A stretch of DNA of 50,796 nt from Candidatus Omnitrophota bacterium (GCA_025453445.1 JALOQJ010000012.1:1-50796); one strand, 5' to 3'. Positions 12,746-30,459 are shown, numbered from the stretch's first letter. Made by a program: numbers and translations. The notes: a model not told the origin generated them from the sequence alone.

Positions 12746-12774
12746 TTGACAAGCTTAAAAAAATATGCTAAATT
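12746..12774 (+). promoter_or_regulatory. Sigma70-type promoter for the diguanylate cyclase
   Basis: TTGACA 12746-12751, 17-nt spacer, extended -10 TGC-TAAATT 12769-12774; ATG 8 nt downstream. Confidence 0.65.
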
Positions 12775-12782
12775 TAGAGCTT

Positions 12783-13946
12783 ATGGAAGAACTGAATAAA
12801 CTTAATCAGGAACTGGAACGCACCAAAACAGAACTGGCGATACTCTATGAAATCTCCAATGCTATGCGCACCACGCTTAAGCTGGATGAGATTTTATACA
12901 TTATCCTTACCGGAGTTACTGCCCATACCGGACTTGGTTTTAACCGGGCAATCCTTTTTCTGATTAATGAAAAAGACGGCTTAATCGAAGGAAAAATGGC
13001 TATTGCTCCGGAAAGCGGCGAAGAAGCAAACCGCGTCTGGAGGCGCATCGAGCAGGAACAGATGGATTTGGAAGACTTAATCAGCGCTTACCAGTTTTCC
13101 AAATCAAGCGTAGAATCCGCTTTTAACCAGCAAATCCGCAGAATGAAAATACCTTTACGCGAACAAAACGGCGGGATGCTCGCTTTAAGCGTTTTAGACG
13201 GTATGCCACTAAACTTAAACCGCGAAGCGATCCTTAAATACAGCAACGACCCGATTATACAATTATTAAAGCCTGAGGAGTTAATTGTTGTACCGCTAAA
13301 AGCTAAAGACAAGGTAAATGGAATTATTCTGGCGGATAATTTTGTCACTAAAAAACCGATTACTAAAGACGATGCCCGAATGCTGATTATGTTGGCTAAC
13401 CAGGCGGGCTTGGCAATAGAAAATTCCCAGCTTTATGAAAAAACCGTGCTGCGCAGCCATTCGGATTACCTCACCGAGCTCTGGAACCACGGACATTTCC
13501 AATACCTTTTTCAGGCGGAACTGGAAAAAGCCAAAGCTACAAAAACCCCGCTTACCCTGATAATGATCGATATTGATGATTTTAAAATTTACAATGACCA
13601 GCTCGGCCATCAGGCAGGAGACCAGATCCTCAGAGAATTAAGCACACTTCTGAAAAAACAGTCGCGCAAAATGGATTTTGTTTGCCGTTACGGCGGAGAA
13701 GAATTCACTATTATTCTGCCGCAGACAGATAAAGACGAGGCATTTGCCATTGCTGAAAGGCTGAGACAGGATATTGCCCGTCAGGTTTTTGCCCACGAAG
13801 AGATTTTACCGAACAAAAAATTAACCGTCAGCTTGGGGCTGGCGGCCTTCCCTGCAGACGGAACAACTACTTCCAGTGTAATCAATCATTCCGACAAAAT
13901 GCTTTATCAGGCAAAAAACAAAGGCAAGAATACTACCTGCCGCTAA
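12783..13946 (+). CDS. GAF-domain diguanylate cyclase
   Basis: N-terminal coiled coil and GAF (LANQAGLAIENSQLY); DIDDFK, RxxD I-site (RKMD) and intact RYGGEEF. The track start at 12765 lies inside the predicted promoter, so ATG 12783 is preferred. Confidence 0.92.
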   Translation: MEELNKLNQELERTKTELAILYEISNAMRTTLKLDEILYIILTGVTAHTGLGFNRAILFLINEKDGLIEGKMAIAPESGEEANRVWRRIEQEQMDLEDLISAYQFSKSSVESAFNQQIRRMKIPLREQNGGMLALSVLDGMPLNLNREAILKYSNDPIIQLLKPEELIVVPLKAKDKVNGIILADNFVTKKPITKDDARMLIMLANQAGLAIENSQLYEKTVLRSHSDYLTELWNHGHFQYLFQAELEKAKATKTPLTLIMIDIDDFKIYNDQLGHQAGDQILRELSTLLKKQSRKMDFVCRYGGEEFTIILPQTDKDEAFAIAERLRQDIARQVFAHEEILPNKKLTVSLGLAAFPADGTTTSSVINHSDKMLYQAKNKGKNTTCR

Positions 13947-18013: not shown

Positions 18014-18517
18014 TTAGCTATTCAACAAGTAGTAAAAAGTCTCGATTTTTTTCCGGCTTTGCTCGTCAAATTTAATTAATAATTCGAATTCTTGAGAATT
18101 ATTTTTTCGCGGCCAAACCCGGGATATTTTTCCATCAAAGATTATCCCGCTTTTATTATCCGTATTAAACGACCATTGCAAAGTGACTTCGACCTCCGGA
18201 TGTAAAGATTCTTTGGCTATACATAATAATCCCAATGAACTGATATCAATCGTGCGCACAATAATAGTTTTATTTTCATAAGTCAGAGCAACATAGCTTT
18301 CGAACTCAAAGCGCCGGAATTTCCTATTTTCAATGAAGACGTTTTTATCAATTTTAGCGCAGGCAACTTCCCATTGCCTGCCGTATTTGGCAACCCAATC
18401 AATTGCCGCTGTGCCAAAGCCGATTTCATAGCCCGCTTTTTCACTTTCTATCCACTGATGCTTCCTGATTTCCGCAATGGAACGCGGATCCCTCAAATAT
18501 GGATATGACCCTTTCAC
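18014..18517 (-). CDS. PilZ-domain protein with N-terminal DUF4032-like helical domain
   Basis: N-terminal EIRKHQWIESEKAGYEIGFGTAAIDWV; c-di-GMP motifs RxxxR (RKFRR) and DxSxxG (DISSLG); GTG start after GGAGGG. Confidence 0.8.
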   Translation of the reverse strand: MKGSYPYLRDPRSIAEIRKHQWIESEKAGYEIGFGTAAIDWVAKYGRQWEVACAKIDKNVFIENRKFRRFEFESYVALTYENKTIIVRTIDISSLGLLCIAKESLHPEVEVTLQWSFNTDNKSGIIFDGKISRVWPRKNNSQEFELLIKFDEQSRKKIETFYYLLNS

Positions 18518-18541
18518 TCCACCCTCCTTTTTGAAGAGTGA

Positions 18542-18569
18542 ATTATATCAACAATTTATTTAATGTCAA
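18542..18569 (-). promoter_or_regulatory. Consensus sigma70 promoter for the PilZ gene
   Basis: TTGACA (18569-18564), 16-nt spacer, TGA-TATAAT (18547-18542). Confidence 0.75.
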
Positions 18570-18596
18570 GAGCAGCTGTTTTTTGACTAGTTTTTT

Positions 18597-20786
18597 TTAT
18601 TTGAAGATGGGGAGTTCTACAACGAAGCGGGTGCCGGATTGATAGACGGAATCAAAAGAAATGCTGCCTTTGTGGCCGTCGGTAATAATTTTATTAATCA
18701 CATACAGGCCAAGGCCAGTGCCTTTGCGCGCGGAGATTTTAGTGGTAAAAAATGGCGTAAAAATTTTCTTTAAGTTCTCTTCTTTCATACCCATGCCATT
18801 ATCTTCCACTACAATTTCCAGATGCTCCCCCTTAGGCAAAGTAGAAAATGTAATCTTGCCGCGGAAACCATCTTCTTTAAGTGTAGTGCGGCGTTCAACA
18901 ATCGCGTCATAGGCATTATCAATAAAATTAAAAAAGACCTCCTGCAGCTGGACAAGATTACCTTTGACTTTCGGGATATCTTTGGAAAAATCACGCAGCA
19001 AATCAAATTCATCCAGCTTAACTTTATATTTCACCATATCCAAGGTCCCGTCGATAATCTGATCTAAAGTCAGGGCTTCGAACTTTTCTTCGCCTTTACG
19101 TGTATATTTCATTATACCCTTTACCACTTCCCCGCCCTGCATAACATTTGCCTGAATGCGGTCAAGGGCATGCGAAACAGAATCAATCATTTCTTTAACT
19201 TCCGGAGTGCATTTTGTGGTATCCATTAATTTAATTGTATCTATTGTGTCTCCGGCAATTAAAGACAAGGCATAAAAACGGTTATTTATCTGATGCGATA
19301 ATCCGTCTGCCATGGTTCCGATGGTTGCCATTTTTTCTGCCTGGGCAATCTGTGACTGCATTTCCTGCGCTTCATCATAAAACTGGGCATTCTCAATTGC
19401 CAATGCTGCCTGGCTTGCCAGAACCTGAAAAACATTCAAGTCATCCTCAGTATAAATTTGGCCGGAAAGCTTATCGCCCAACACAATAAAACCCATAAAC
19501 TTATCTTCAAGGAAAATCGGGATGAGCACTGAGGCAGCCAAGAGACGCATATTTTCTTCCAGATGCTGATAAGTGGCATCGCTTGTATCCTCCATCTGGC
19601 GCTTGGCTTCTTCATAAATCAGCGGCTCGCGCTTAAACATCAACCATGCAATCATAGGATTATCAGCGGGTAATTTTGGAAGCGAAATCCTATGCCTGCC
19701 GCGGCTTACCTGCAGAATATATTCATCAGTTTCAGAATGATAAAGATAAACCGCAGCATAAGAAATTTTAACTGTCTTGGTTACAATATGAGTAATTAAA
19801 TTCAGCAGCCTTTGTAAATTCCTGATACTCGTCATTCCGATAGAAGCATGTTTTAAGGTATTCTGATAACGCTTTTGCTCAGCAAGCAAGCGCTCCTCTG
19901 CCTGACGGCTGACATAAATGTAAATAAAAGGCCCGGCCGTGGCTAAAACGGCCATCAACCCCAGAGGGGCTAACCACCATCCCGGGCCTAATATATCAAT
20001 TAACCAAGCTTTCAGCCAAACTGCTAAAGCAAACGGAATACCAAGAACCAAGGTATAAACTGCTATGAATATCCCGGCGCGGGTAATGGCAACGGTAATA
20101 TCCATGAGGCGGTATTTGATCATGGCATAAGCAATAATAAGTGGGTATAACGCAACAAAAAAATTAAGGTATGGATAAATATCTACGCGAAATGCTGGTA
20201 AAAAATTAGCCTCTGCTCCTATCCAGCCAACAATGGAACCTACAATAAAATATTTTAATTGATTACGACGGATACCGCCGGAGGGTTTATATGCCTTTAT
20301 TAATAATAAAAATGAGTACGATAATAATACCCAGTAGAGACATATATAGAATAATAACCAAATCAAGGTCTTATACTTGCTCCAATCAATCCAATAAAAT
20401 TTACCAAATATAAATCTTAAGTCTCTTAAAAAGAACAATGAGTGATTATACCAATTAGAAAGTAAGAAAAATAAAGCTAGCGCATGAATTATTAAAATAA
20501 GGTATTTTCGTTTTAAATTTAAGAACCTAAAAATAAAATGAGAAAAAAATACAGGGACGTATATTGCTCCCGTATAAGCTACTTGCCACCAAAATAAAGC
20601 TAAATTATATTGAGAAATAGACAGACTAGAAAACATGCAGGCTCCTAGCCCCCAAGTCCCTACACTTATAGCAATTCCACTAAACAATCGATTGTTTAGA
20701 CTTCGCCATCCCCTAGACAAAACAAAAATAGCTATGGCAAAATTACTTACTACAGTTAGAATACCTGATAAGAAAAATATGTTCAT
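18597..20786 (-). CDS. Membrane sensor histidine kinase (multi-TM HisKA_7TM-like N-terminus, GAF, HisKA, HATPase)
   Basis: About 9 hydrophobic segments; GAF ending LASQAALAIENAQFY; H-box SHQINN, N-box NFIDNAYDA, DNGMG, FTPFFTTK and GTGLGL. Confidence 0.92.
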   Translation of the reverse strand: MNIFFLSGILTVVSNFAIAIFVLSRGWRSLNNRLFSGIAISVGTWGLGACMFSSLSISQYNLALFWWQVAYTGAIYVPVFFSHFIFRFLNLKRKYLILIIHALALFFLLSNWYNHSLFFLRDLRFIFGKFYWIDWSKYKTLIWLLFYICLYWVLLSYSFLLLIKAYKPSGGIRRNQLKYFIVGSIVGWIGAEANFLPAFRVDIYPYLNFFVALYPLIIAYAMIKYRLMDITVAITRAGIFIAVYTLVLGIPFALAVWLKAWLIDILGPGWWLAPLGLMAVLATAGPFIYIYVSRQAEERLLAEQKRYQNTLKHASIGMTSIRNLQRLLNLITHIVTKTVKISYAAVYLYHSETDEYILQVSRGRHRISLPKLPADNPMIAWLMFKREPLIYEEAKRQMEDTSDATYQHLEENMRLLAASVLIPIFLEDKFMGFIVLGDKLSGQIYTEDDLNVFQVLASQAALAIENAQFYDEAQEMQSQIAQAEKMATIGTMADGLSHQINNRFYALSLIAGDTIDTIKLMDTTKCTPEVKEMIDSVSHALDRIQANVMQGGEVVKGIMKYTRKGEEKFEALTLDQIIDGTLDMVKYKVKLDEFDLLRDFSKDIPKVKGNLVQLQEVFFNFIDNAYDAIVERRTTLKEDGFRGKITFSTLPKGEHLEIVVEDNGMGMKEENLKKIFTPFFTTKISARKGTGLGLYVINKIITDGHKGSISFDSVYQSGTRFVVELPIFK

Positions 20787-20793
20787 ATGTCGA

Positions 20794-22224
20794 TTATCCC
20801 TTAGCGCTGACTATAATTTTTGCCGCTTCCCTTCCTGAAAGAGCAACAACAGAAATCCCACTTTGCCCCATGCCATTTGTAACCCAATGACCAGAGAGAT
20901 AAAGATTTTTGATACTTGTCTGGTACGGAAAAATACTTTTACTCGTTTGGGAAGGTAATGCTTGCCATCCAAAAAGAGCCCCATTTCTATTCGAAGTATA
21001 GTTATAGAATGAACGAGGGGTACCTATTACTTTAAGTTCAATTGATTCTGCTAAATCTGGTAACATCCTACTAGCTCTAGTAATAATTTTATTATATAAC
21101 TCATTTTTACTATTTTCCCACATCTTCACAGAAGCATACCTAGCGCCAACGAATATTCTCATAATTCCTTTTCCTGAAGGAACTAGGCTCTTATCAATAA
21201 GTGAAGGAAAGCTACAAAGTAAGTAATCAAAGCTCGGAATCAACTGTTTCTTTTTATCACTTTGAAAATTGTAGCACTTTTCTATATCGTAGGTAGAGAA
21301 AAACCATGTAGTAAAATGTTTCGGTTTTATATTTAATTGCTTCTTAAGGCCCAAGTACACAACAAAGGCAGAATTTGAAATTTTCAATTTATTTACCACC
21401 TTACGTTCATTACACTCGCAGTCTAATAATGTATTAAATGTTAAATGGGCATCAACGTTTGACACTACAAATTTCGATACTATGCATCCCTTATCTTGTA
21501 ATTTTACACCCATCACTTTTTTTTGTTTTGTCATAATTCTCGTTACTCTATTGGACAATAAAAGTACACCGCCGTATTCCCTAAATTTTTCCGCTAATAA
21601 ATCGGGTAAATTCTGAATTCCGCCTTTTGGATAATAGCCACCGTCTAACACAAATTCTTTATAAATAATAGCACCGACAAATCCGGAAGACTGAGAAGAA
21701 GATAACCCAAGGTTCCCAAGCATAGTTGATAAAATTGCTTTCAATTTGTGGTCAGTTAAAAATATATCGAGTAAATCTTGAAAAGTACGATTTCGCAGCT
21801 TAGAATAGAGACTTAAAAAATCTTCATTAATAATTAAATTAAAAAGTCTTTTTATATTTTCTTTCTCTTTGGGAAAATGGGATATTAATTCATTTATCGT
21901 TTTGTTTTGATCCTTTCTTATAAATATTGTTTTATCCGGGGTAATAATTCTATCCGTAGGATCATTCCTAATTAATTTTATCCTATCTAAAAGGTCTAGC
22001 CCTCGTAAAATCTCAGAAAGCACTCCTTTTTCTCTAAGTGACCCTAAATAATGCACCCCCACATCAAATCTATATCCTTGCCTCTCGAACGACGTGCAAT
22101 AGCCGCCGGGTTTATTTTGCTGTTCGACAATAATGACCTTGAGACCGGCTTTGGCTAAGTAGCAGCCGCAAACAAGGCCGCCAATTCCTGCGCCAATAAT
22201 CGCTACATCGTATTTCTCACTCAT
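20794..22224 (-). CDS. FAD-dependent oxidoreductase, phytoene desaturase / retinol saturase-like (COG1233)
   Basis: IIGAGIGGL, GGYCTSFERQGYRFDVG, YYPKGG, TP...Y...NGALFG and NLYLSGHW motifs. Confidence 0.88.
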   Translation of the reverse strand: MSEKYDVAIIGAGIGGLVCGCYLAKAGLKVIIVEQQNKPGGYCTSFERQGYRFDVGVHYLGSLREKGVLSEILRGLDLLDRIKLIRNDPTDRIITPDKTIFIRKDQNKTINELISHFPKEKENIKRLFNLIINEDFLSLYSKLRNRTFQDLLDIFLTDHKLKAILSTMLGNLGLSSSQSSGFVGAIIYKEFVLDGGYYPKGGIQNLPDLLAEKFREYGGVLLLSNRVTRIMTKQKKVMGVKLQDKGCIVSKFVVSNVDAHLTFNTLLDCECNERKVVNKLKISNSAFVVYLGLKKQLNIKPKHFTTWFFSTYDIEKCYNFQSDKKKQLIPSFDYLLCSFPSLIDKSLVPSGKGIMRIFVGARYASVKMWENSKNELYNKIITRASRMLPDLAESIELKVIGTPRSFYNYTSNRNGALFGWQALPSQTSKSIFPYQTSIKNLYLSGHWVTNGMGQSGISVVALSGREAAKIIVSAKG

Positions 22225-22820
22225 TTAATATACTTTATTGCCTCAGTTAACGGCTTTCTTGGCGAACGACGGCCTTCTTCATCTGCATAGCCAAGAGTTA
22301 AAACCGCTATTAAGTCATCTTTTACGCCCAAAAGCTTATTAATTTCATTCTTAGAGAAAAGTGGCGTATCCAACCAGCAAGAGCCAATACCTAAAGCTTC
22401 TGCTGCAAGAATCATATTCTGAATTGCAGCAGATATCGCAGATAATTCTGCACGCGGAATTATCTCGCCAAAATTATTATAAGCTGCCTTATACTTATTC
22501 TTTAATTTCGCTAAGTCGCCGGAATTATAAATTAAAATTACTGCCGGTGCGCAAGCAATAATCCGCGAGCCGGCGCTTAAAAGAATATTTGCCCCTGCGC
22601 CTAATTTCTTTGATCTCGCAAGCGCAATCTCTGAAATTTTCTTGATTGTAGTTTTTTTGGTGATGACAATAAAACGCCACGGTTGAATTCGCAAAAAACT
22701 CGGCACCGACGGCCCCCAGATTCCGGCTTCAATAATTTTATCGAGTATTTTTTGGGGTATTGGCTTATTTTTATATCTTCTGATCGTGCGGCGGGTTTTG
22801 ATAAGCTTAAGAATATCCAT
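22221..22820 (-). CDS. Nitroreductase family protein
   Basis: IKTRRTIRRY, QPWRF, AIQNMILAAEALGIGSCW, LGY and RKPL motifs. Confidence 0.9.
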   Translation of the reverse strand: MDILKLIKTRRTIRRYKNKPIPQKILDKIIEAGIWGPSVPSFLRIQPWRFIVITKKTTIKKISEIALARSKKLGAGANILLSAGSRIIACAPAVILIYNSGDLAKLKNKYKAAYNNFGEIIPRAELSAISAAIQNMILAAEALGIGSCWLDTPLFSKNEINKLLGVKDDLIAVLTLGYADEEGRRSPRKPLTEAIKYIK

Positions 22821-23253
22821 AGCCTTCTTCTATTTTAGAAATCTCAGGCTGCTTAACTTTAGTAAGAAGAGATAACTCATTCTGACTTAATCCCCGTTCA
22901 ACTCTTGCTTGCCTGATCAACATGCCTATTTTTTTGAAAAACAACGATGGCTCCCCTTTTGGCTTTCTCTGCTTGATACCGCGCTTCTCCAAGAGCTGCT
23001 CATAAATTGTCTGCCACCAATCTTTAAAATCAGATTTCCGGTTAATCTTGGACCAATATAATTTTACCCCCGGCCAGGCCTTAATAAAATTATTTTTAGA
23101 AATAAATAAAAAAACCTCCCCGGGCTTGTCGCAACGAGAAAGCAAGGTGACCATGCGTTGGTTAAATTGCGGATGAAGCGGATTTTTCAGTATACTGCAA
23201 GTTTCTTTAAGTGCTCCCTTTTTTAAATCCCAGAAATACTTAGCTATCTTCAT
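22807..23253 (-). CDS. Putative antitoxin/regulator with C-terminal XRE-type HTH, apparently truncated
   Basis: IRQARVERGLSQNELSLLTKVKQPEISKIEEG, then a stop 4 residues later; abuts the AbiEii gene. Confidence 0.7.
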   Translation of the reverse strand: MKIAKYFWDLKKGALKETCSILKNPLHPQFNQRMVTLLSRCDKPGEVFLFISKNNFIKAWPGVKLYWSKINRKSDFKDWWQTIYEQLLEKRGIKQRKPKGEPSLFFKKIGMLIRQARVERGLSQNELSLLTKVKQPEISKIEEGYGYS

Positions 23254-23964
23254 TTAGTACATTGCCTCAGCTATAAACTTCTTTATTTCATTCTCTAAAT
23301 ATATAATCATCTGTTGAGAATCGAACTTCTTATCATAAATATCCAAATCAAGCAATCCTAATTTCAATTCCTGACGGGAAAATGACCTGTACCAGTGGAC
23401 CATACCCCGTTGCAGGACTCCAGAAACACTCTTTAAGAATTTATGTAAGGGCATTATCTTCTTAGAGAGGCAATATATATCGAAAATATCCTTTGCCGCC
23501 CTTCTGCCCTGCATAACTTCCCTGCCTATTTCATCAAATTCCGGACGGCTTCCGGTTATTGCCAAAATTTTCTGTAAATATATATTATTGACGCTATAAA
23601 CCCTGACTCCATCAATTTTCTTAATGTCGGGATTTTTAAAAAACAGGTCCTCAACAAAATCAATCTTCAAGGGCCGGCCCGAGCCGCCTAGTGCAAAACT
23701 GTAAAACCGCACTCTTGCTTTATCCGGCAAAAAAAGTTCATTCTCAAGCTTGATTTTTGATTTAGAAACAGTTTTAAGGTTATTTATAATATTCTCTATC
23801 TCAGGCTGCTTGAAGGAAGGCGAAAAAAAATCAAGATCAGCCGAGAATCGGTGCTTTAAATAATAAAGCTCCAGTGCAGTGCCTCCGCAAAGAGCAAAAG
23901 TTTTTGCGCTTTTAGAAAAAACCCTTAATGTTTTTAATTGTAATTCTCTTAGTTTTTTGTCCAT
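23254..23964 (-). CDS. AbiEii/AbiGii-family nucleotidyltransferase (type IV TA toxin-like)
   Basis: FALCGGTAL...HRFSADLDFF, KIDFV, KILA and KDIFDIY motifs. Confidence 0.88.
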   Translation of the reverse strand: MDKKLRELQLKTLRVFSKSAKTFALCGGTALELYYLKHRFSADLDFFSPSFKQPEIENIINNLKTVSKSKIKLENELFLPDKARVRFYSFALGGSGRPLKIDFVEDLFFKNPDIKKIDGVRVYSVNNIYLQKILAITGSRPEFDEIGREVMQGRRAAKDIFDIYCLSKKIMPLHKFLKSVSGVLQRGMVHWYRSFSRQELKLGLLDLDIYDKKFDSQQMIIYLENEIKKFIAEAMY

Positions 23965-23990
23965 TTTTTAATATATTAAAACCTATATTA

Positions 23991-24018
23991 AGTATATATT
24001 ATAGCATATAATTGTCAA
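23991..24018 (-). promoter_or_regulatory. Sigma70-type promoter for the AbiEii module
   Basis: TTGACA (24018-24013), 16-nt spacer, TATACT (23996-23991); 16-bp AT-only palindrome at 23966-23981. Confidence 0.6.
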
Positions 24019-24034
24019 GTAAAATTTATACCTA

Positions 24035-25312
24035 TTATTTAGTCAGAATATTCTTGGCAAACCACTTGGTTAAAGCAATCAGGGTCAAAATCGGCGGAAG
24101 GCCGGGAGCAGAAGCTAGAACACTTGCATCGCAGGCATAAAGGCCTTTCATTTGGGTTTCCAACTGATTATTGACTACTTTACCTATTGCCGCGCTGCCT
24201 CCGGGATGAGCACCTACAGGATTAGTAACAAAAATACTCTTTGGGTTCACCCCGCATTTAATCAGGATTTCTTTTGAGATATCGCTCCCGCGCTTCAATT
24301 TTTTTAAGTCTGCTTCGCTAGGAGCTTTATCCACTCTGCCATTCTGATAAACCCTACCAGTATTATCATCAGCTATTTTAGTCATTACCCCCATTAATTT
24401 ATTCAGCCGGAAAGCATTACAAAGATAACGCGGGGAAACGCCGGAAGAAAAACTAACCAGATTATCCACAAAAGGCGAAATAACAAAGCCTTCACTTGCG
24501 TGAAATTTAGCGCAAACTACAGACATGGTTAATTCCTTCTGCTGATTGAATTCTTTAGATACGCCGTAAGTAACATTAAATAAATCCACAAAAAGATTTT
24601 TGCCTGCTTCAATGCCGGATTTTTGCAAAATAATTGGCGTGCCGATGCCGCCGGCAGCTAAGATGATTTTCCCGGCAAAAAAACTTTGCTTCTTCATCCC
24701 CTTTATTCCTTCAACACCAACAGCCCGGCCATTTTGGCTAATCACTTTATTTACTGAGAATCCAGTAATTAAGCTGTAATTTTGATCCTGCATATCCTCA
24801 AGGCAATCTCTACCGGTCCACTTGGAATAATAAGCGCAACCAATAACGCAATCTCCGCAAGAGGCACATTTACCGCTACTGCTGAATTTAGGCATAGGGA
24901 GCATATCATAGCCTAATTTGTTGGCTTCCTGCATAATCCTCATTGAAGCCTTGCCTATGGTAAGGCCGTTTTGCCTGACACAGCTGTCCTTTTTTGCTTC
25001 TGTTAATTCCTCTTTTATATCAATGCCAAGCTTTGCGCAATCTTCTGTGCTTGGCTCCACAGCATTGCCACAGCTGACTAAGCTTGTGCCACCCACGCCA
25101 AAGCAGCGGTAAATTTTCACCCCTTGCCTACTGCCGATTAAAGCAAGCTTGCGGTCATAAAAAGTAAAAGTGCGTATCAGACTGCCAAGCTTATCAATAA
25201 ACCCGCCTTTTTCAAGAATTAATACTGACTTATCCTTACGCGTCAATTCTCTGGCCAGACTCAGGCCGCACAAACCGCCTCCAACAATAATATAATCGTA
25301 TTCTTTATTCAT
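24035..25312 (-). CDS. GMC-family FAD oxidoreductase with Cys cluster
   Basis: IIVGGGLCG, GVGGTS, CASCGDCVIGC, LAAGGIGTP, AHPGG, LYACDAS and PPILT motifs; ATG 25312 preferred. Confidence 0.85.
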   Translation of the reverse strand: MNKEYDYIIVGGGLCGLSLARELTRKDKSVLILEKGGFIDKLGSLIRTFTFYDRKLALIGSRQGVKIYRCFGVGGTSLVSCGNAVEPSTEDCAKLGIDIKEELTEAKKDSCVRQNGLTIGKASMRIMQEANKLGYDMLPMPKFSSSGKCASCGDCVIGCAYYSKWTGRDCLEDMQDQNYSLITGFSVNKVISQNGRAVGVEGIKGMKKQSFFAGKIILAAGGIGTPIILQKSGIEAGKNLFVDLFNVTYGVSKEFNQQKELTMSVVCAKFHASEGFVISPFVDNLVSFSSGVSPRYLCNAFRLNKLMGVMTKIADDNTGRVYQNGRVDKAPSEADLKKLKRGSDISKEILIKCGVNPKSIFVTNPVGAHPGGSAAIGKVVNNQLETQMKGLYACDASVLASAPGLPPILTLIALTKWFAKNILTK

Positions 25313-26384
25313 CCCAGACCATTTTCTTTGCAAAATATTTAAAAGCCCGCAGCAAATTTTCCTCATTCATCTGCGGAAAAACCAAACCATAGCCTGCCAG
25401 CAAACGACAGGTCTCCTTGGAATTCAGTTTATTATTAAAATTAATTGCCAGAATATTATTCTCTAAAATCGCTTTTTGCGCTGGGCTTAATTTTTTTAAA
25501 TCAAAATCTTTTAAGCTAACTGCCTTAGGCGGATAGGCGTTAATCATTTTACAACCACAATCTATGATTTTTTCAACTAATACCGGCTCTGTAGGGAAAA
25601 GATGATAGTTTTTATTCTGCTCTTTTGTGCGGGAAGAAATCAGGTATATTGCCTCGGCAATATAATCTACCGGCACAAGCCTTAAAAAAGCTCCTTTTAT
25701 TGGCAACTTATCAAATAGCCCCAAGTTACACAAAGAAAGCAGCTGGTAAATATTATTAAACTTCAATACCTTGCCGGTTTTGGAATGGCCAATAACAATC
25801 GGCGGACGGAAAATATCTATCCAGAGGCCTTTTTGGCGGTATTTATTGGCGGACTTCTCTGCTTCAAATTTACTCTGCTCATAAGTAGTCCTGAATCTTT
25901 GACCGAGATCAAGATCATTTTCTTTAAATTCACCCTGATAATCGCCATAAATATAGGCAGTGCTAATATGATTTACTTTTAATAAAGCCCCCTGCTTTTT
26001 ACATTCTTCTGCAAATTCCAAAACCCGCTCTGTGCCGATAACATTTACTGCCCTAATCGGTAGAAGCAGCCAGTTAAAATTAATTACTGCTGCAAAGTGG
26101 TATATTTCCTCAACCTCTGTGCATAATTTCTTTAATGTTTCCTGATCCAGGCCAAGGTTTTTCTTGGTGATATCGCCTTTTAGAACAATTAAATTATCCA
26201 TTGCCGAAGATTTTGTATCCCAAAGCTTCAGGGCCTCGCGCACCCGTATATCAGCACTTAAATTTCCTTTATCGCGTGCCAAAGCATAAACTTTATGCCC
26301 GTTTTCCAAAAATATCTTAGATAAATACGAACCTAAGAGCCCGGTAGCGCCTGTAATAAAAATTGTCCTTAATTTATTCGCCAT
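25305..26384 (-). CDS. Thioester reductase / fatty acyl reductase-like extended SDR (NAD_binding_4)
   Basis: FITGATGLLG, KGDI...LGL, HFAA, NVIGT, HISTAY, YEQSK, RPPIV and VPVDY motifs. Confidence 0.85.
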   Translation of the reverse strand: MANKLRTIFITGATGLLGSYLSKIFLENGHKVYALARDKGNLSADIRVREALKLWDTKSSAMDNLIVLKGDITKKNLGLDQETLKKLCTEVEEIYHFAAVINFNWLLLPIRAVNVIGTERVLEFAEECKKQGALLKVNHISTAYIYGDYQGEFKENDLDLGQRFRTTYEQSKFEAEKSANKYRQKGLWIDIFRPPIVIGHSKTGKVLKFNNIYQLLSLCNLGLFDKLPIKGAFLRLVPVDYIAEAIYLISSRTKEQNKNYHLFPTEPVLVEKIIDCGCKMINAYPPKAVSLKDFDLKKLSPAQKAILENNILAINFNNKLNSKETCRLLAGYGLVFPQMNEENLLRAFKYFAKKMVWDE

Positions 26385-26385
26385 T

Positions 26386-27591
26386 TTAATTTGCCCCAAA
26401 AACTACGCAGCAATTATTACCACCAAAAGCAAAGCCGTTATTCAGGCAATATTTAGCAGGGATTTTTCTTGCAATATTAGCAACACAGTCAACATCGCAT
26501 TCCGGATCAGGAGTTTTAAAATTAATCGTCGGAGGAACAATGCCGTTTTTGATTGCTAAACAGCAAACAATCGCCTCCAAAGCAGATGCCGCACCCATAG
26601 TGTGGCCTAACATTGATTTGATAGAACTTGCCGGCGTATTATTTTTACCGAATAATTCCCTGATTGCTGTTGCTTCTTCTTTATCATTCTGCACTGTGCC
26701 GGTGCCATGCGCACTAATATAATCTATATCCTCTACGGACAGGCCTGAATTAATGATTGCTTTCTGCATTGCCATCTTAATCCCGTCTCTTTTGGGTGCT
26801 ACCATGTGATATGCATCGCAGGAAAGGCCATAGCCAAAAACTTCAGCATAAATATCCGCACCTCTTTTAAGAGCGTTTTCTTCTGACTCAAGTATTAAAA
26901 TTCCGGCGCCTTCGCCTAAGAGCATGCCTTTTCTCTCTTTATCAAAAGGCTTACATTCCTCCTGCGCCATGGCGTATAATTTCTGAAACCCCTGGAACGC
27001 CACACGGGAAAGCGCCTCAGCGCCTCCCACAATTGCCATATCCAACTCCCCGCTTCTAATCAGGTCATAGCCATAGCTAACAGCATAATTTCCGGCAGCG
27101 CAGGCATTGGGGAATAATAAATTAACCGGGCTTTTTAGCCTGAAAAAATAGCCGATATTACGCGGGATAGAAGGTGAAAAAGCATTCAAAAGCAGAGTAG
27201 AAGTAATCTCATCCGGCTCTTCCCTTAAAAGCTTGGCTACGGAAAAATCCAAAACATTTGCCTCAGCCATGGTTGTGCCGATAATTACTCCGGGTGCTTT
27301 ATTTTTTAATTCGGGTAAACTAATTTTAGCGTCTTTCAGGGCAAGCTTAACAGCTGCAATGGCAAAGCAAGATGCCCGACCAAAAAATTTGATTAATTTT
27401 TTTGGGATAAATTCAGCAGAATTAAAATTTTTTATTTGTCCGCCGTTGTGGCGCTTGAAATGGGCAGTATCAAAAAGATCGATTTTTCCGATACCTGATT
27501 TACCTTTGGTCAAATTCTCCCAGAAGGAATCATTATCCAGCCCTAAAGAAGAAATTACACCCAAACCAGTAACTACAACTTTTCTTTGCAT
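26386..27591 (-). CDS. Beta-ketoacyl-ACP synthase II-like (active KS)
   Basis: FabF family with intact Cys-His-His triad: NACAAG, AHGTGT, KSMLGHTMGA; ends FAFGGNN. Confidence 0.92.
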   Translation of the reverse strand: MQRKVVVTGLGVISSLGLDNDSFWENLTKGKSGIGKIDLFDTAHFKRHNGGQIKNFNSAEFIPKKLIKFFGRASCFAIAAVKLALKDAKISLPELKNKAPGVIIGTTMAEANVLDFSVAKLLREEPDEITSTLLLNAFSPSIPRNIGYFFRLKSPVNLLFPNACAAGNYAVSYGYDLIRSGELDMAIVGGAEALSRVAFQGFQKLYAMAQEECKPFDKERKGMLLGEGAGILILESEENALKRGADIYAEVFGYGLSCDAYHMVAPKRDGIKMAMQKAIINSGLSVEDIDYISAHGTGTVQNDKEEATAIRELFGKNNTPASSIKSMLGHTMGAASALEAIVCCLAIKNGIVPPTINFKTPDPECDVDCVANIARKIPAKYCLNNGFAFGGNNCCVVFGAN

Positions 27592-27596
27592 AGGTA

Positions 27597-27845
27597 TTAA
27601 AGCAGCTTCTCCAGCAAGTCGTAAACATTTTTCAGGCAGGTAACCTTGGGGATATCGTCTTCCGGAATAATCACTTTGTATTTTTTCTCAATGCTGGCTA
27701 CGATTTCCAAGGCCATCATACTGTCAATGCCTAACTCTTCGACAAATTTTGCTTCTTCTTTTAAGTCTTTTACCGGAATATGCGCCATATCTGCGATGAT
27801 TTTCCTTACTTCCTTCTTCACTTCGCTAAAGTCTTTTTTCGGCAT
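27597..27845 (-). CDS. Acyl carrier protein
   Basis: ELGIDSMMALEI phosphopantetheine site; lies between the two KS genes. Confidence 0.92.
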   Translation of the reverse strand: MPKKDFSEVKKEVRKIIADMAHIPVKDLKEEAKFVEELGIDSMMALEIVASIEKKYKVIIPEDDIPKVTCLKNVYDLLEKLL

Positions 27846-27863
27846 ATTGCTTCCCCCTTTTCA

Positions 27864-29102
27864 TTAGTTGAATTTATATTTCTCCAAGATGCAAGCGCTG
27901 TTATAGCCGCCAGGCCCAAAAGAAGTAACCAATGCCAGTTTGATATTCTTTTTGCGGGCCTTATTCGGGACACAATCAAGATCACAATCCGGATCTTTTG
28001 TTTTATAATTAATCGTTGGGGGAATAATTCCCCGTTCCATTGCTCCGATACAAGAAGCAATCTGCAAAGTTGATGAGGCGGAAAATGTTTCACCAAGCAT
28101 AGATTTAATTGAACTCACCGGCAACTTATCCAGATGCCTGCCGAAGATTTTCTTTAAAACCCGAGCTTCAGTCTTATCAAGGCCAGATGAAGAATTGGCA
28201 CAACTGGAAACATAGTCTATCTCAGCCGGGCTTATTCCTGATTTATCCAAAGCTGCAATAATTGCTTTTTCCAGGCCTTCTCCGGTCAGAGCAATCCTGC
28301 CCATCTTAGAAGCATCAAAAAAACTACCAATGCTTTTAATTCTGGCAAAAATTTTTGCCTTATGCGCCTTAGCCTCTGATTCTTTTTCAACGCAAAAAAC
28401 CGCCGCAGCCTCTCCTAATACCGGGCCATTCCTTCTTTTATCAAAAGGGCAACTTAATGCCTCGCCTTTAAGGCCGGCCATATAACCTAATTTATGAAAG
28501 GCAAAAAATAAAGATGCTGTCAGAGCATCTACTGCCCCACAGATAACCTGTTTTGCTTTTGCCGTATCCAAGGCAATAAGCGCATACCTCAACGCCTCCA
28601 TACCTGAGGTATAGCCGCTGCTTACAGTAGCATTAAATCCGCGGATGCCAAAAGCAATGGAAACCTGCGATGATACGGCATTAATTACTGTCGAGGGGAA
28701 AAGCGCAGGACTGGCAAAATCTATTCCTTCTTTGAAGACCTCGCGGTCGAATTCCACAATTGACCAGAGGTGAGTAAAAGTCGTGCCGGTGGCAACGCCG
28801 ATATTATTTGTATTTTCAGGAGAAATTTTTAATCCCGCGTCTTTTAGCGCCATTGACGCAGCAGATAATAAAAAGAGCGTGCCTCGGTCAAGATTGCGCA
28901 AACTTTTTAATTCCAGGAACTTTTTAGGATCAAAATTTTTTATTTCCGCGGCTATACGCACAGGAAATTTTTTCGCTTCAAAAGAAAAAATTTCAGAAAC
29001 TCCACTCCTGCCTTTTTCCAATGCAGTCCAAAAATGATCTTTACCTATGCCATTGGCAGCCACTACACCTAAACCTGTGATCACCGCGTCATGATTATGC
29101 AT
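27864..29102 (-). CDS. Non-catalytic ketosynthase homolog (chain-length-factor-like)
   Basis: FabF fold (VITGLG, CPFD, LGEAA, IPPTIN, SFGPGG) with the triad lost: SSGYTSG, SCANSS, KSMLGETFSA. Confidence 0.88.
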   Translation of the reverse strand: MHNHDAVITGLGVVAANGIGKDHFWTALEKGRSGVSEIFSFEAKKFPVRIAAEIKNFDPKKFLELKSLRNLDRGTLFLLSAASMALKDAGLKISPENTNNIGVATGTTFTHLWSIVEFDREVFKEGIDFASPALFPSTVINAVSSQVSIAFGIRGFNATVSSGYTSGMEALRYALIALDTAKAKQVICGAVDALTASLFFAFHKLGYMAGLKGEALSCPFDKRRNGPVLGEAAAVFCVEKESEAKAHKAKIFARIKSIGSFFDASKMGRIALTGEGLEKAIIAALDKSGISPAEIDYVSSCANSSSGLDKTEARVLKKIFGRHLDKLPVSSIKSMLGETFSASSTLQIASCIGAMERGIIPPTINYKTKDPDCDLDCVPNKARKKNIKLALVTSFGPGGYNSACILEKYKFN

Positions 29103-30127
29103 TATAATATGGGCGCCTCAGGCACCCAGACTTCAAATCCGTGCCTTGTGGCAATGTCAGCAATTTCTTCCATCTTGTCCAGATTAATACTTTCGCCTAA
29201 AGAATAATTTGAAAGCTTCCCTTCCCATAATAAAAGCATGGTTTCCGCCAAAGACGCAGGAATAATACCTGCGGGTAATCCGGTATTGATATTAAGCCTG
29301 ACAGGTTTAGGTATTTTTATTAATCCTGCCCTGACTACGGTAATATCCTGGCGGCTCTTTGCTTTTGCGGTAAGCGAGCCGGATACTGATGCATCACAAA
29401 GAATCGTATTTGGCCTGAGGCTGGTTATGTCCAATTCAGCCTCCGGAATATCATCGGAAAAAATTACTATATCCGCATCCCTGACAGCCCTGGCAGTGCT
29501 GATATGCACAGCTACTCCTGTTTCCGGATTAAGCTGGGGAATAACTTCTTGCAGATGCTTAAGCTTAAATTCCAACTCCGGGTGGCTATTTAAGGTAATC
29601 TTAGCAGCATAGCCGGATAATTTACGGCTGCATAAAGAGCCAATGGCAGAGGCAGCATTTATTATCGCGACATGAGAACGGCTTAAATCAAGCTGTTTGA
29701 TTTTTGCCATACGATAAATTGCCTCAAACGCCGACCATGCAGCATAAGTACTGCCGCTGGTAACCGGAATTTTCAGGCCCCTGATAGCAGTATAGCCTTT
29801 ATCACAGAAAAGCGCGGCATAACCGCCAAGTCCTAAAATAGCAGCTCCTGATTTCTGGGCAATTGAACCGGCAGAAATTATTCTTTCCATTGCCTCCAAA
29901 GACTCTTTATAGGTATGGCCAATAATCTCCGGCAGGACGATAAAAAAACCCTGCGCTGATTTTGCCCTGCCACCAGAAGGAAGATTTTTGACTTTATAAA
30001 CGATAAAAGGCCAGGTGCGCTTAAAAAATAATTTTAAGATAAACCGCGGAATGAAGCGGATGAAAAAAGAGAAATTTCTCAGTTGTTTAACATTTATAGG
30101 ATGGATTAAATAAGCAAAGGTTTTCAT
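29102..30127 (-). CDS. Acyl-ACP reductase / COG5322-like protein, degenerate active site
   Basis: FAYLIHP, ILGLGG, PVTSGSTY, CDAS, ASLAETMLL, NYSLG and RHGF pattern. Confidence 0.75.
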   Translation of the reverse strand: MKTFAYLIHPINVKQLRNFSFFIRFIPRFILKLFFKRTWPFIVYKVKNLPSGGRAKSAQGFFIVLPEIIGHTYKESLEAMERIISAGSIAQKSGAAILGLGGYAALFCDKGYTAIRGLKIPVTSGSTYAAWSAFEAIYRMAKIKQLDLSRSHVAIINAASAIGSLCSRKLSGYAAKITLNSHPELEFKLKHLQEVIPQLNPETGVAVHISTARAVRDADIVIFSDDIPEAELDITSLRPNTILCDASVSGSLTAKAKSRQDITVVRAGLIKIPKPVRLNINTGLPAGIIPASLAETMLLLWEGKLSNYSLGESINLDKMEEIADIATRHGFEVWVPEAPIL

Positions 30128-30345
30128 CAGAATAAAGTTACCTGCCGGCGCTCTTTGCCTTCGCTGTTATAGGCTAACTTTTCTTTAATCCAGCGCTCGA
30201 TGTATTTTTTATGGAACCGCCAGTCTGTGCCGATTTTAAAAGCTGGGATTTTACCCTCACGGGCATATTTGTGCACAGTCAAAGGATGCAGATTAAGATA
30301 GTCAGCAACTTCTTTAGTTGTCATGATTTCTTTTTCTTTTACCAT
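30127..30345 (-). CDS. Excisionase-family (HTH_17) DNA-binding protein
   Basis: IMTTKEVADYLNLHPLTVHKYAREGKIPAFKIGTDWRF; stop overlaps the next ATG. Confidence 0.9.
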   Translation of the reverse strand: MVKEKEIMTTKEVADYLNLHPLTVHKYAREGKIPAFKIGTDWRFHKKYIERWIKEKLAYNSEGKERRQVTLF

Positions 30346-30381
30346 ATTTCCACCTTTTTTAGCATGTTTTAACTTATCATA

Positions 30382-30410
30382 TGTATACTAGCAAAAGTGT
30401 AGTTTGTCAA
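30382..30410 (-). promoter_or_regulatory. Sigma70-type promoter for the KS/ACP cluster
   Basis: TTGACA (30410-30405) with a -10-like TATACA 17 nt downstream, or an extended TGC-TAGTAT. Confidence 0.55.
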
Positions 30411-30419
30411 TAAAAAAGA

Positions 30420-30459
30420 GATAAAAAAACGTAGGGGACGTTTAGACGTCCCCTACGTT
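30420..30459 (-). terminator. Intrinsic terminator (14-bp perfect stem) ending the ribosomal/TCA superoperon
   Basis: AACGTAGGGGACGT-ttag-ACGTCCCCTACGTT (30428-30459), followed on the minus strand by a T-run. Confidence 0.88.

Follow-up and report, generated by a model that had tools for sequence, protein, structure and literature searches.

What would a cluster make that pairs an active ketosynthase (KS) with an inactive one, adds a dedicated acyl carrier protein (ACP) and reductive enzymes, and ends in a membrane histidine kinase, and does the kinase belong to the pathway? The question is raised by positions 18014-30410 of a stretch of 50,796 nucleotides from a Candidatus Omnitrophota bacterium (GCA_025453445.1, JALOQJ010000012.1:1-50796). 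This whole stretch, hereafter the window, is contig C10 of a genome (G000) of 1.29 Mb in 57 contigs, 93% complete. An earlier note on this DNA listed twelve genes and proposed that they make and sense a lipid or polyketide signal. The list stands: all twelve genes lie on the minus strand where the note placed them, and Pfam and NCBIfam matches back each label. The interpretation shifts. The locus is probably a type II fatty-acid/polyketide-like synthase of the kind of anammox Cluster I, set in a frame with a kinase that would sense lipid or membrane state; from the enzymes encoded, the product would be an unsaturated fatty aldehyde or alcohol.

Comparisons draw on 16 loci around homologues of the acyl-ACP reductase (AAR)-like gene in genomes; on 9 of the 32 loci found in metagenomes, among them the closest relative, L041; and on 401 sampled Omnitrophota genomes. 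The features of the window described below are all on the minus strand.

A ketosynthase pair of the anammox kind

Anammox Cluster I (KustE3603-3608), the putative ladderane cluster, consists of amxACP, amxFabZ, amxFabF2, amxFabFmut, PDH, and a B12 radical-SAM enzyme. The window shares with it a dedicated ACP, a pair of FabF-type KS, one active and one dead, and a CrtI-like flavoenzyme. The active KS, of amxFabF2 type (26386-27591), keeps Cys164, His295 and His330. Among solved structures it matches 9s5h_B at 418.6 bits, Iga11 (6kxd) second at 335 bits, and Bacillus subtilis FabF (4ls5) at 297 bits. The upstream KS (27864-29102), of amxFabFmut type, carries Tyr/Cys/Glu at the Cys/His/His sites and resembles a chain-length factor (CLF) subunit; it matches 9s5h_C at 294.5 bits, FabF at 246, and the actinorhodin CLF (1tqy_B) at 140. 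Between the two lies the amxACP-like ACP (27597-27845; PP-binding, 48 bits), with its serine in a DSM motif; its nearest solved structures are 9s5i_E, 7auf_A and 7qv0_D. (Two dead enzymes had been called in the locus, and both calls hold: this KS, by its triad, and the AAR-like protein discussed below, which is without the nucleophilic cysteine.)

What are these structures? A 2026 preprint reports crystal structures of the amxFabF2/amxFabFmut heterodimer, both by itself and together with C8-ACP, and lists Val/Thr and Asn/Glu/Cys at triad sites in anammox FabFmut (bioRxiv 10.64898/2026.05.19.726425). The triad sites of 9s5h_C are Val/Asn/Glu, as tabulated for Kuste3606 (PMC2649909), and a 13-residue motif of 9s5h_C has exact matches in 13 genome contigs, every one of them belonging to Brocadia, Brocadiaceae or Planctomycetota. 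From the topic of the preprint, the triad match and the motif match, we infer that 9s5h and 9s5i are the anammox amxFabF2/amxFabFmut structures. Entries 7QV0 and 8AYB-8AYI (8AYB/C/D/I), which come from the laboratory that issued the preprint, are anammox amxFabZ, with amxACP (PMC10139942). The FabA-like dehydratase of the related locus L012 matches 7qv0_A/8ayb at 144.8 bits and Pseudomonas FabZ at 124.

Direct comparison with anammox genomes gives the same picture. In the motif-matched loci of Brocadia the order is ACP-FabZ-FabF2-FabFmut-PDH-B12 radical-SAM. Identity to the window protein is 48-50% for FabF2, 36-38% for FabFmut, and 40-42% for the ACP; parts of the window and of Cluster I are each other's best or only strong matches. 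FabZ has no counterpart in the window. The window also differs in gene order and is without the radical-SAM gene; in turn it adds thioester reductase (TR), GMC and nitroreductase-family enzymes, a degenerate AAR paralogue (pseudo-AAR), an HTH_17 protein, and the kinase. In a maximum-likelihood tree, three anammox FabF2 proteins and six Omnitrophota KS form one clade with 100/100 support, and all dead KS split from the rest, again at 100/100. (The tree left out one long-branch row, L016_KSz; a separate quick tree agrees.)

The anammox pair is reported to be a heterodimer that decarboxylates malonyl-ACP, that favours C6-C8 over C16 in crosslinking assays, and that represents the first chain-length factor in fatty-acid synthesis (bioRxiv 10.64898/2026.05.19.726425). 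The active and dead KS of the window very probably form a heterodimer of this KS/chain-length-factor-like sort, as far as their sequences can tell.

These matches replace two descriptions in the earlier note. The locus was said to fit no recognised cluster class; its KS pair, ACP and CrtI-like gene are the closest relatives of anammox Cluster I. It was also called a minimal type II polyketide synthase (PKS), which does not hold in the aromatic sense: the dead KS goes with amxFabFmut-type FabF derivatives rather than with the actinorhodin CLF. An aromatic type II PKS was accordingly considered and rejected, since the actinorhodin KS (220.9 bits) and CLF score well below the amx and FabF matches. 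No cyclase is among the Pfam and NCBIfam matches in the locus. Aryl-polyene membership was rejected from the rankings of solved structures alone, ApeO and ApeC not being among the sequences compared. Nearer to hand is the Iga11/Iga12 system for ishigamide, a highly reducing type II PKS for polyenes, which likewise uses a KS/CLF heterodimer and works with a ketoreductase (KR) and a dehydratase (DH), without an enoyl reductase. The window differs from it in having neither KR nor DH, and in a dead KS much nearer to proteins of FabF type than to other CLFs, of which 1tqy_B was the only one matched.

A dead KS of this type (E at most 1e-85) is found in 104 of the 401 Omnitrophota genomes, 103 of them in the class of the window. 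In the ESM Atlas it meets generic KASII clusters only. A search of a representative library returned a large family of dead KS proteins in which a conserved Glu occupies the second His site; no row of that library has the exact Val/Asn/Glu pattern, and no anammox members were picked out. Many proteins of about 800-830 residues in the library (P0229-P0231, P0236, P0237 and others) contain two KS-like stretches, and look like fused KS/dead-KS forms of the dead-KS family.

Probable release and tailoring enzymes

Reductive release, already proposed in the earlier note, remains the likely off-loading step. A stand-alone TR of the NAD_binding_4 family (25305-26399; Pfam, 177 bits; TIGR01746, 151 bits, below its cut-off of 213) keeps the Rossmann motif GATGLLG and the catalytic Tyr-x3-Lys (YEQSK). 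Its best solved relative is MxaA (4u7w, 111.8 bits). Both motifs are common to the MxaA-type terminal reductases, which are domains of megasynthases, whereas the window enzyme stands alone. Matches to the TR in two anammox genomes are weak and lie elsewhere than in Cluster I; a match to the AAR-like protein (27%) occurs in one of the two, far from Cluster I.

Three flavoenzymes accompany it. The short GMC-family enzyme (24035-25366; GMC_oxred_N, 67.6 bits; GMC_oxred_C, 27 bits) has 443 residues as called and likely starts at Met19. Its gene is found in L041 (85%) and L044 (64%) alone of the 9 metagenome loci, and in none of the 16 genome loci. The nitroreductase-family FMN enzyme (22221-22820; Pfam, 108.5 bits) has relatives whose genes adjoin the TR gene in L012, L018, L023 and L050. 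The third enzyme (20794-22224) belongs to the CrtI/carotenoid-isomerase (amine-oxidase) family (carot_isom, 174.8 bits; crtI_fam, 158.9 bits; neither reaches its cut-off). It shares 33-35% identity with the Brocadia Cluster I PDH, which is the only strong match to this query in each of the two anammox genomes; by these matches it is the counterpart of PDH.

Missing steps and other ketosynthase loci

Scans of open reading frames (ORFs) with Pfam and NCBIfam found no KR and no amxFabZ-type DH in the window, and Pfam scans found no ORF for a B12 radical-SAM enzyme. KR and DH lie inside the cluster in L012, L016, L018, L042-L045 and L047; they are absent from the window and from L041.

Copies are present elsewhere in the genome. 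At the end of contig C7 (C7:25810-28508) a second dead KS, with Phe/Ala/Glu at the triad sites, stands beside a KR and a DH that are 62% and 56% identical to those of L012. Contig C54 opens with an active KS (C54:375-1595). These genes are the closest matches in G000 to anammox FabFmut, FabZ and FabF2 (47-56%): Brocadia FabF2 is 54-56% identical to the KS on C54, Brocadia FabFmut 47-50% identical to the dead KS on C7, and Brocadia FabZ 44-56% identical to the dehydratases of C7 and L012. The end of C7 and the start of C54 may be one locus; no ACP was seen in the end sequences. It was considered that the KS pairs of related loci are orthologues of the C7/C54 pair and not of the window pair; this was rejected, since the trees group the dead KS of the window with its counterparts from L018, L026 and L015. 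They place the C7 dead KS near that of L012, and both sub-lineages therefore occur in the frame described below.

A third KS/dead-KS pair (Cys/His/His and Arg/Asp/Asn) is found on contig C47 (C47:1156-10273, locus L009). Its neighbours are a B12-binding radical-SAM gene, one or more cyclases, an SRPBCC protein, an MFS transporter, an SDR, and a ketopantoate-reductase-like gene. Two overlapping ORFs represent the radical-SAM gene, and their products are 23-28% identical to the Brocadia enzyme (38-41 bits), and the KS pair falls outside the amx-type clades in both trees. The locus looks like a separate type II PKS-like cluster in this 1.3 Mb genome. A search of G000 with Pfam NMO (FabK) gave only weak partial matches.

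A recurring frame around variable cargo

Two genes open the locus. The first encodes an HTH_17 (excisionase/BldC/MerR-like) DNA-binding protein (30127-30345; Pfam, 60.8 bits), 43-96% identical to 17 homologues from related loci. The second (29102-30127) encodes the AAR-like protein, which has no Pfam match, reaches 81.4 bits with TIGR04058 (cut-off 449.7), and matches the PigE N-terminal part at 105 bits. Its best solved relative is Synechococcus AAR (6jzz/6jzu, 61 bits), aligned over residues 64-332. At the site of Cys294 it has Ser (the wild-type 6jzu has Cys, and the variant 6jzz Ser), and NAASAIG replaces the NADPH motif GATGDIG. It is thus of the same fold family as cyanobacterial AAR (6JZU), without that enzyme's nucleophile and Gly-rich motif; the locus also is without the aldehyde-deformylating oxygenase that partners AAR in cyanobacteria.

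Among 40 members of the family the nucleophile site holds Ser in 24, Ala in 6, Cys in 5, Pro in 4, and Asp in 1. Four of the five Cys-bearing members have an intact Gly-rich motif (GATGS- or GAGGS-type); the fifth, L026, has GADSTVGS. Loss of the Cys and the Gly-rich motif accompanies another reductase in the locus, either an intact SRPBCC-AAR fusion or a TR. The frames nevertheless are open across the family, with 9 invariant columns, and we read the protein as a retained, apparently non-catalytic paralogue. A binding or regulatory role may be suggested for it. (A complex prediction for pseudo-AAR with the HTH_17 protein scored 0.00, without controls, and speaks neither for nor against binding.)

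The frame closes at its 3′ end with a histidine kinase (18597-20786) that has seven transmembrane segments and a GAF domain (HisKA_7TM, GAF, HATPase_c; the last at 81 bits), hereafter the 7TM-GAF kinase. Its H-box (LSHQINN) and its N, G1 and G2 boxes (FIDNAYDA, DNGMGM, GTGLGL) are present; the Pfam HisKA model finds no match in it. The layout is similar to that of the multi-TM GAF kinases of PrsK type, known from PEP-CTERM systems, and TIGR02916 aligns over residues 208-726, though at 81 bits against a cut-off of 300, and neither a PrsR-type regulator nor an exosortase context was seen. A receiver protein adjoins the kinase 3′ in L012; in G000 a 67% orthologue of that protein lies at a contig edge (C34:1-321).

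How far does this arrangement extend? In the 16 genome loci the HTH_17 gene adjoins the AAR-like gene in 14, and a 7TM-GAF kinase, 55-66% identical in relatives, lies 3′ of the AAR-like gene in 13, the three misses being contigs that end first. In 6 of the 9 metagenome loci the lipid genes end in the kinase. The linkage drawn in the earlier note, which was to fall if the kinase proved unlinked in most relatives, is supported by these counts. AAR-like genes occur in 132 of the 401 genomes. By hand counts, taken as lower bounds from the best 150 of 512 kinase matches with two candidates scored per genome, an AAR-like gene and the kinase are at most about 12 kb apart on the same contig in at least 37 of these 132, with 4 more from fetched loci, and across many families; a dead KS and the kinase lie close together in at least about 28 of the 104 dead-KS genomes.

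The cargo between the frame genes varies. It is absent, or a lone SRPBCC gene, in L024 and L025. It consists of a KS pair, ACP, KR and DH in 5 of the 16 genome loci, and of ACP-TR-nitroreductase-CrtI, without KS, in L023. In L014, L018, L020 and L021 it includes an acyltransferase, an SRPBCC-fused AAR with intact GGTGDIGS, a second kinase, receiver proteins, and a protein of about 490 residues whose family was not recognised; in L022 and L020 it includes an aminotransferase and ICMT-like methyltransferases. The SRPBCC fusion of L018 has 513 residues and bears the Cys. The metagenome locus L044 is complete, in the order dead KS, KR, ACP, DH, KS, TR, a 311-residue ORF, GMC, nitroreductase, CrtI-like. 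The frame of HTH_17 gene, AAR-like gene, variable lipid genes and 7TM-GAF kinase thus recurs across many Omnitrophota families, and gene order supports a linkage of the kinase to it.

Two further features of these loci may be recorded. A conserved protein of about 490-500 residues without a Pfam match lies between the SRPBCC-AAR fusion and the 7TM-GAF kinase (L018:10741-12234; L020:10837-12306; L017:6187-7683). In the metagenome locus L043 (14660-21221) the place after the KS pair, taken in other loci by the reductase and the kinase, is filled by a type I PKS-like open frame of at least 2187 residues that is similar to KS.

Signals, neighbours and a mosaic segment

The earlier note described the locus as a co-directional, tightly spaced run with its own promoter beyond a strong terminator. 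Spacing and signals are confirmed. The HTH_17/AAR-like and AAR-like/KS-like gene pairs each overlap by one base, and the reading frames of all the locus genes are intact. A terminator-like hairpin (30428-30459; 14 pairs, 8 of them GC, then a T-run) closes the upstream lipoyl-carrier gene, and a promoter-like TTGACA-17-TATACA (30382-30410), found by eye, lies ahead of the HTH_17 gene. (The promoter scan omits this site at 30410-30382, the second hexamer ending in A.) The scan totals of 43 promoters and 13 terminators are not above chance, shuffled sequences giving 36.8 and 13.9, so that only individual strong sites count. Co-direction says little. Of the window ORFs of at least 100 codons that are unshadowed by a longer one, all are on the minus strand except 12765-13946; because nearly the whole window reads one way, the shared direction of the locus is uninformative.

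Downstream of the kinase gene lies a PilZ-domain protein (18014-18517; PilZ, 31.8 bits). Receptors of cyclic di-GMP (c-di-GMP) in this family bear the motifs RxxxR and (D/N)xSxxG. About 55 N-terminal residues without a family match precede a domain that carries both, as RKFRR and DISSLG. The gene has a perfect TTGACA-16-TATAAT sigma-70 consensus with a TG upstream (18569-18542) and a terminator-like hairpin (17911-17879), both from the signal scan. It is found in 0 of the 16 genome loci and in 1 of the 9 metagenome loci (L041). The PilZ gene looks like a separate transcription unit, by these signals and this distribution a neighbour and not part of the pathway, and PilZ as the c-di-GMP output that the earlier note thought possible is not supported.

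The run is also interrupted. An AbiEii nucleotidyltransferase gene (23254-23964; Pfam; PADLOC AbiEii, 58 bits) is followed by that of an HTH_3 protein (22807-23253; Pfam), which takes the place of a partner and has no AbiEi-family match; a promoter-like site of its own (24018-23991) has 11 of 12 matches. The pair is a putative toxin-antitoxin (TA) or abortive-infection cassette, swapped in, and not a step of the pathway. It sits in a mosaic segment of about 3.4 kb (20600-24012, delimited by blastn against L041) that also includes the nitroreductase gene, the CrtI-like gene and about the first 60 codons of the kinase gene. Identity to L041 is 83% over 30596-24012 and 20600-18040; between 24012 and 20600 only 157 nucleotides align at 84% and 634 at 66%. 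The GC fraction falls to 0.333 in 20001-22000. Its proteins are correspondingly divergent from those of L041 (AbiEii and HTH 35% and 34%, nitroreductase 58%, CrtI-like 43%), although L041 too has an AbiEii-HTH cassette at this place. Outside it the AAR-like protein is 82% identical to that of L041, and the KS, ACP, TR and GMC proteins 85-96%, with DNA at 83%. AbiE-type pairs lie inside the locus also in L016 (7767-9210) and L021 (12703-13916), at different insertion points; their occurrence in three genomes suggests that the lipid locus is a recurrent landing or exchange site.

Weighing the explanations

The explanation that we favour, with some reserve, joins a Cluster I-kind synthase to a sensing frame. 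Extension of an acyl chain on the dedicated ACP would be the work of the KS heterodimer, and KR and DH would be supplied in trans. With no gene for an enoyl reductase the chain would remain unsaturated; alternatively, its desaturation or isomerisation may fall to the CrtI-like enzyme. Release as an aldehyde or alcohol would be carried out by the MxaA-like reductase and adjustment of the redox state of the product by the GMC and nitroreductase-family flavoenzymes; a membrane lipid would be the likely destination of the product. The HTH_17 protein, pseudo-AAR and 7TM-GAF kinase would form a regulatory frame co-inherited with changing lipid cargo, the kinase serving as a sensor of membrane or lipid state wired to the pathway.

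Several points weigh against this explanation. Relatives keep a KR and DH that the window copy lacks, so the copy may need genes in trans or may be running down. No searchable text gives the code 9s5h, and the identity of that structure is our own deduction. The adjacency counts are lower bounds made by hand, and they include kin genomes that are not independent. Some genomes (G119 and G193 among them) have the kinase but no AAR-like gene; in families such as f33 and f36 the dead KS or KS pair and the AAR-kinase pair are on separate contigs; and in class f60 the best kinase matches lie on other contigs. The receiver protein of L012, used as query, brought up no response regulator on the window contig. 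A search for sequencing runs returned two DNA runs from wetland metagenomes and no RNA run.

The earlier note had the kinase as a possible receptor for the product of the cluster, which would be a diffusible fatty aldehyde, alcohol or polyene, in the manner of quorum sensing. That the kinase is so persistently the last gene of the lipid run fits this, as do its 7TM and GAF sensor part, suited to a small hydrophobic ligand, and a cargo that varies between the frame genes, as would be expected of diversifying signals. It is unlikely all the same: the locus has no export gene and no DNA-binding response regulator; the same enzyme set is tied to membrane lipids in anammox bacteria (bioRxiv 10.64898/2026.05.19.726425); and three KS/dead-KS pairs in G000, in a group with genomes of 1-2.5 Mb, look more like bulk investment in lipid. 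The opposite proposal, that gene order is simply inherited, that the synthase makes membrane lipid constitutively, and that the frame genes have unrelated roles, we also consider doubtful. Most loci come from one class and are kin, nearly all genes of the window run in the same direction, and in G119 and G193 the kinase occurs without AAR-like or dead-KS genes. Yet the frame persists where its flanks change, L018 and L020 having no lipoyl block; the kinase stays at the 3′ end of at least six arrangements of cargo; and the AAR-like gene and the kinase are directly adjacent in distant families (G103, G357, G281, G009).

Has the window copy instead decayed into a remnant that makes nothing, its KR, DH and AAR activities lost? 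KR and DH are missing here and in L041 and present in L042-L045, L047, L012, L016 and L018, the AAR paralogue is degenerate, and the locus has taken in a mosaic segment and a TA cassette. Frames are intact, however, KS, ACP and TR retain their catalytic motifs, comparison with L041 shows more conservation in the proteins than in the DNA, and copies of KR (62% identical to that of L012) and DH (56%) lie on contig C7; a remnant is therefore quite improbable. Weakest of all is the idea that the window cluster and the radical-SAM gene of C47 together make ladderane-like cyclised lipids, to which we give next to no credence. Every fatty-acid synthase (FAS)-like part of Cluster I does have a counterpart in G000, and the third KS/dead-KS pair does adjoin a B12-binding radical-SAM gene. 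That gene is a distant match to the Brocadia enzyme, at 23-28% identity and 38-41 bits, and its KS pair stands outside the amx-type clades; no radical-SAM gene was seen in those related loci whose open frames were scanned, and ladderanes have been reported only from anammox bacteria, according to a preprint and a survey (bioRxiv 10.64898/2026.05.19.726425; PMC9902471).

Implications

Clusters of this broad type have been met outside anammox bacteria before. FAS-like 'ladderane'-type clusters of unknown function are on record (PMC2649909; PMC9902471; PMC11968836), from Desulfotalea and Geobacter by Rattray in 2009 (PMC2649909) and from Omnitrophota and others by Geller-McGrath in 2023 (PMC9902471); as presented there, they are automatic calls or notes on synteny. 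Protein comparison and these published descriptions place the window locus in the same class as the antiSMASH 'ladderane' clusters. Within the literature on ladderanes and KS in Omnitrophota and other non-anammox bacteria that was searched, there was no account of a protein-level match to all FAS-like parts of Cluster I; none of a Cluster I-type spread in one Omnitrophota class, or of reductive release genes; and none of a conserved HTH_17/pseudo-AAR/7TM-GAF kinase frame. 'Ladderane'-type clusters in Omnitrophota were thus already known, and we found no paper that describes the protein-level match, the class-wide spread, or the frame.

Ladderane biosynthesis is a long-standing open problem; according to the preprint, there has been no in vitro synthesis and there is no genetic access to the producers, and the two FabF homologues, ACP and FabZ are anammox-specific (bioRxiv 10.64898/2026.05.19.726425). 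Here the protein types of Cluster I, which have otherwise been studied in ladderane-making anammox bacteria alone, turn up at 36-56% identity in a non-anammox phylum that is uncultured; KR and DH accompany them, and the radical-SAM enzyme does not. This suggests that the FAS-like half of Cluster I is not tied to ladderanes, and the Omnitrophota clusters offer natural "minus cyclase" versions for heterologous expression.

A more speculative proposal, which we put forward at long odds, is that the KS/CLF-type synthase is an older, non-cyclising lipid module, widespread in one Omnitrophota class and run there by a lipid-state circuit of pseudo-AAR, BldC-like HTH protein and 7TM-GAF kinase. If so, the products of the older module would be unsaturated fatty aldehydes or alcohols, primed with short or medium chains and not cyclised; the dead acyl-ACP reductase would act as a sensor of acyl-ACP or lipid beside the BldC-like protein and the kinase; and a cluster without the radical-SAM enzyme would show what the non-cyclising half of the ladderane pathway makes. 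As a candidate for lipid-state sensing in very small genomes, the co-inherited frame of pseudo-reductase, HTH protein and 7TM-GAF kinase lends itself to testing.

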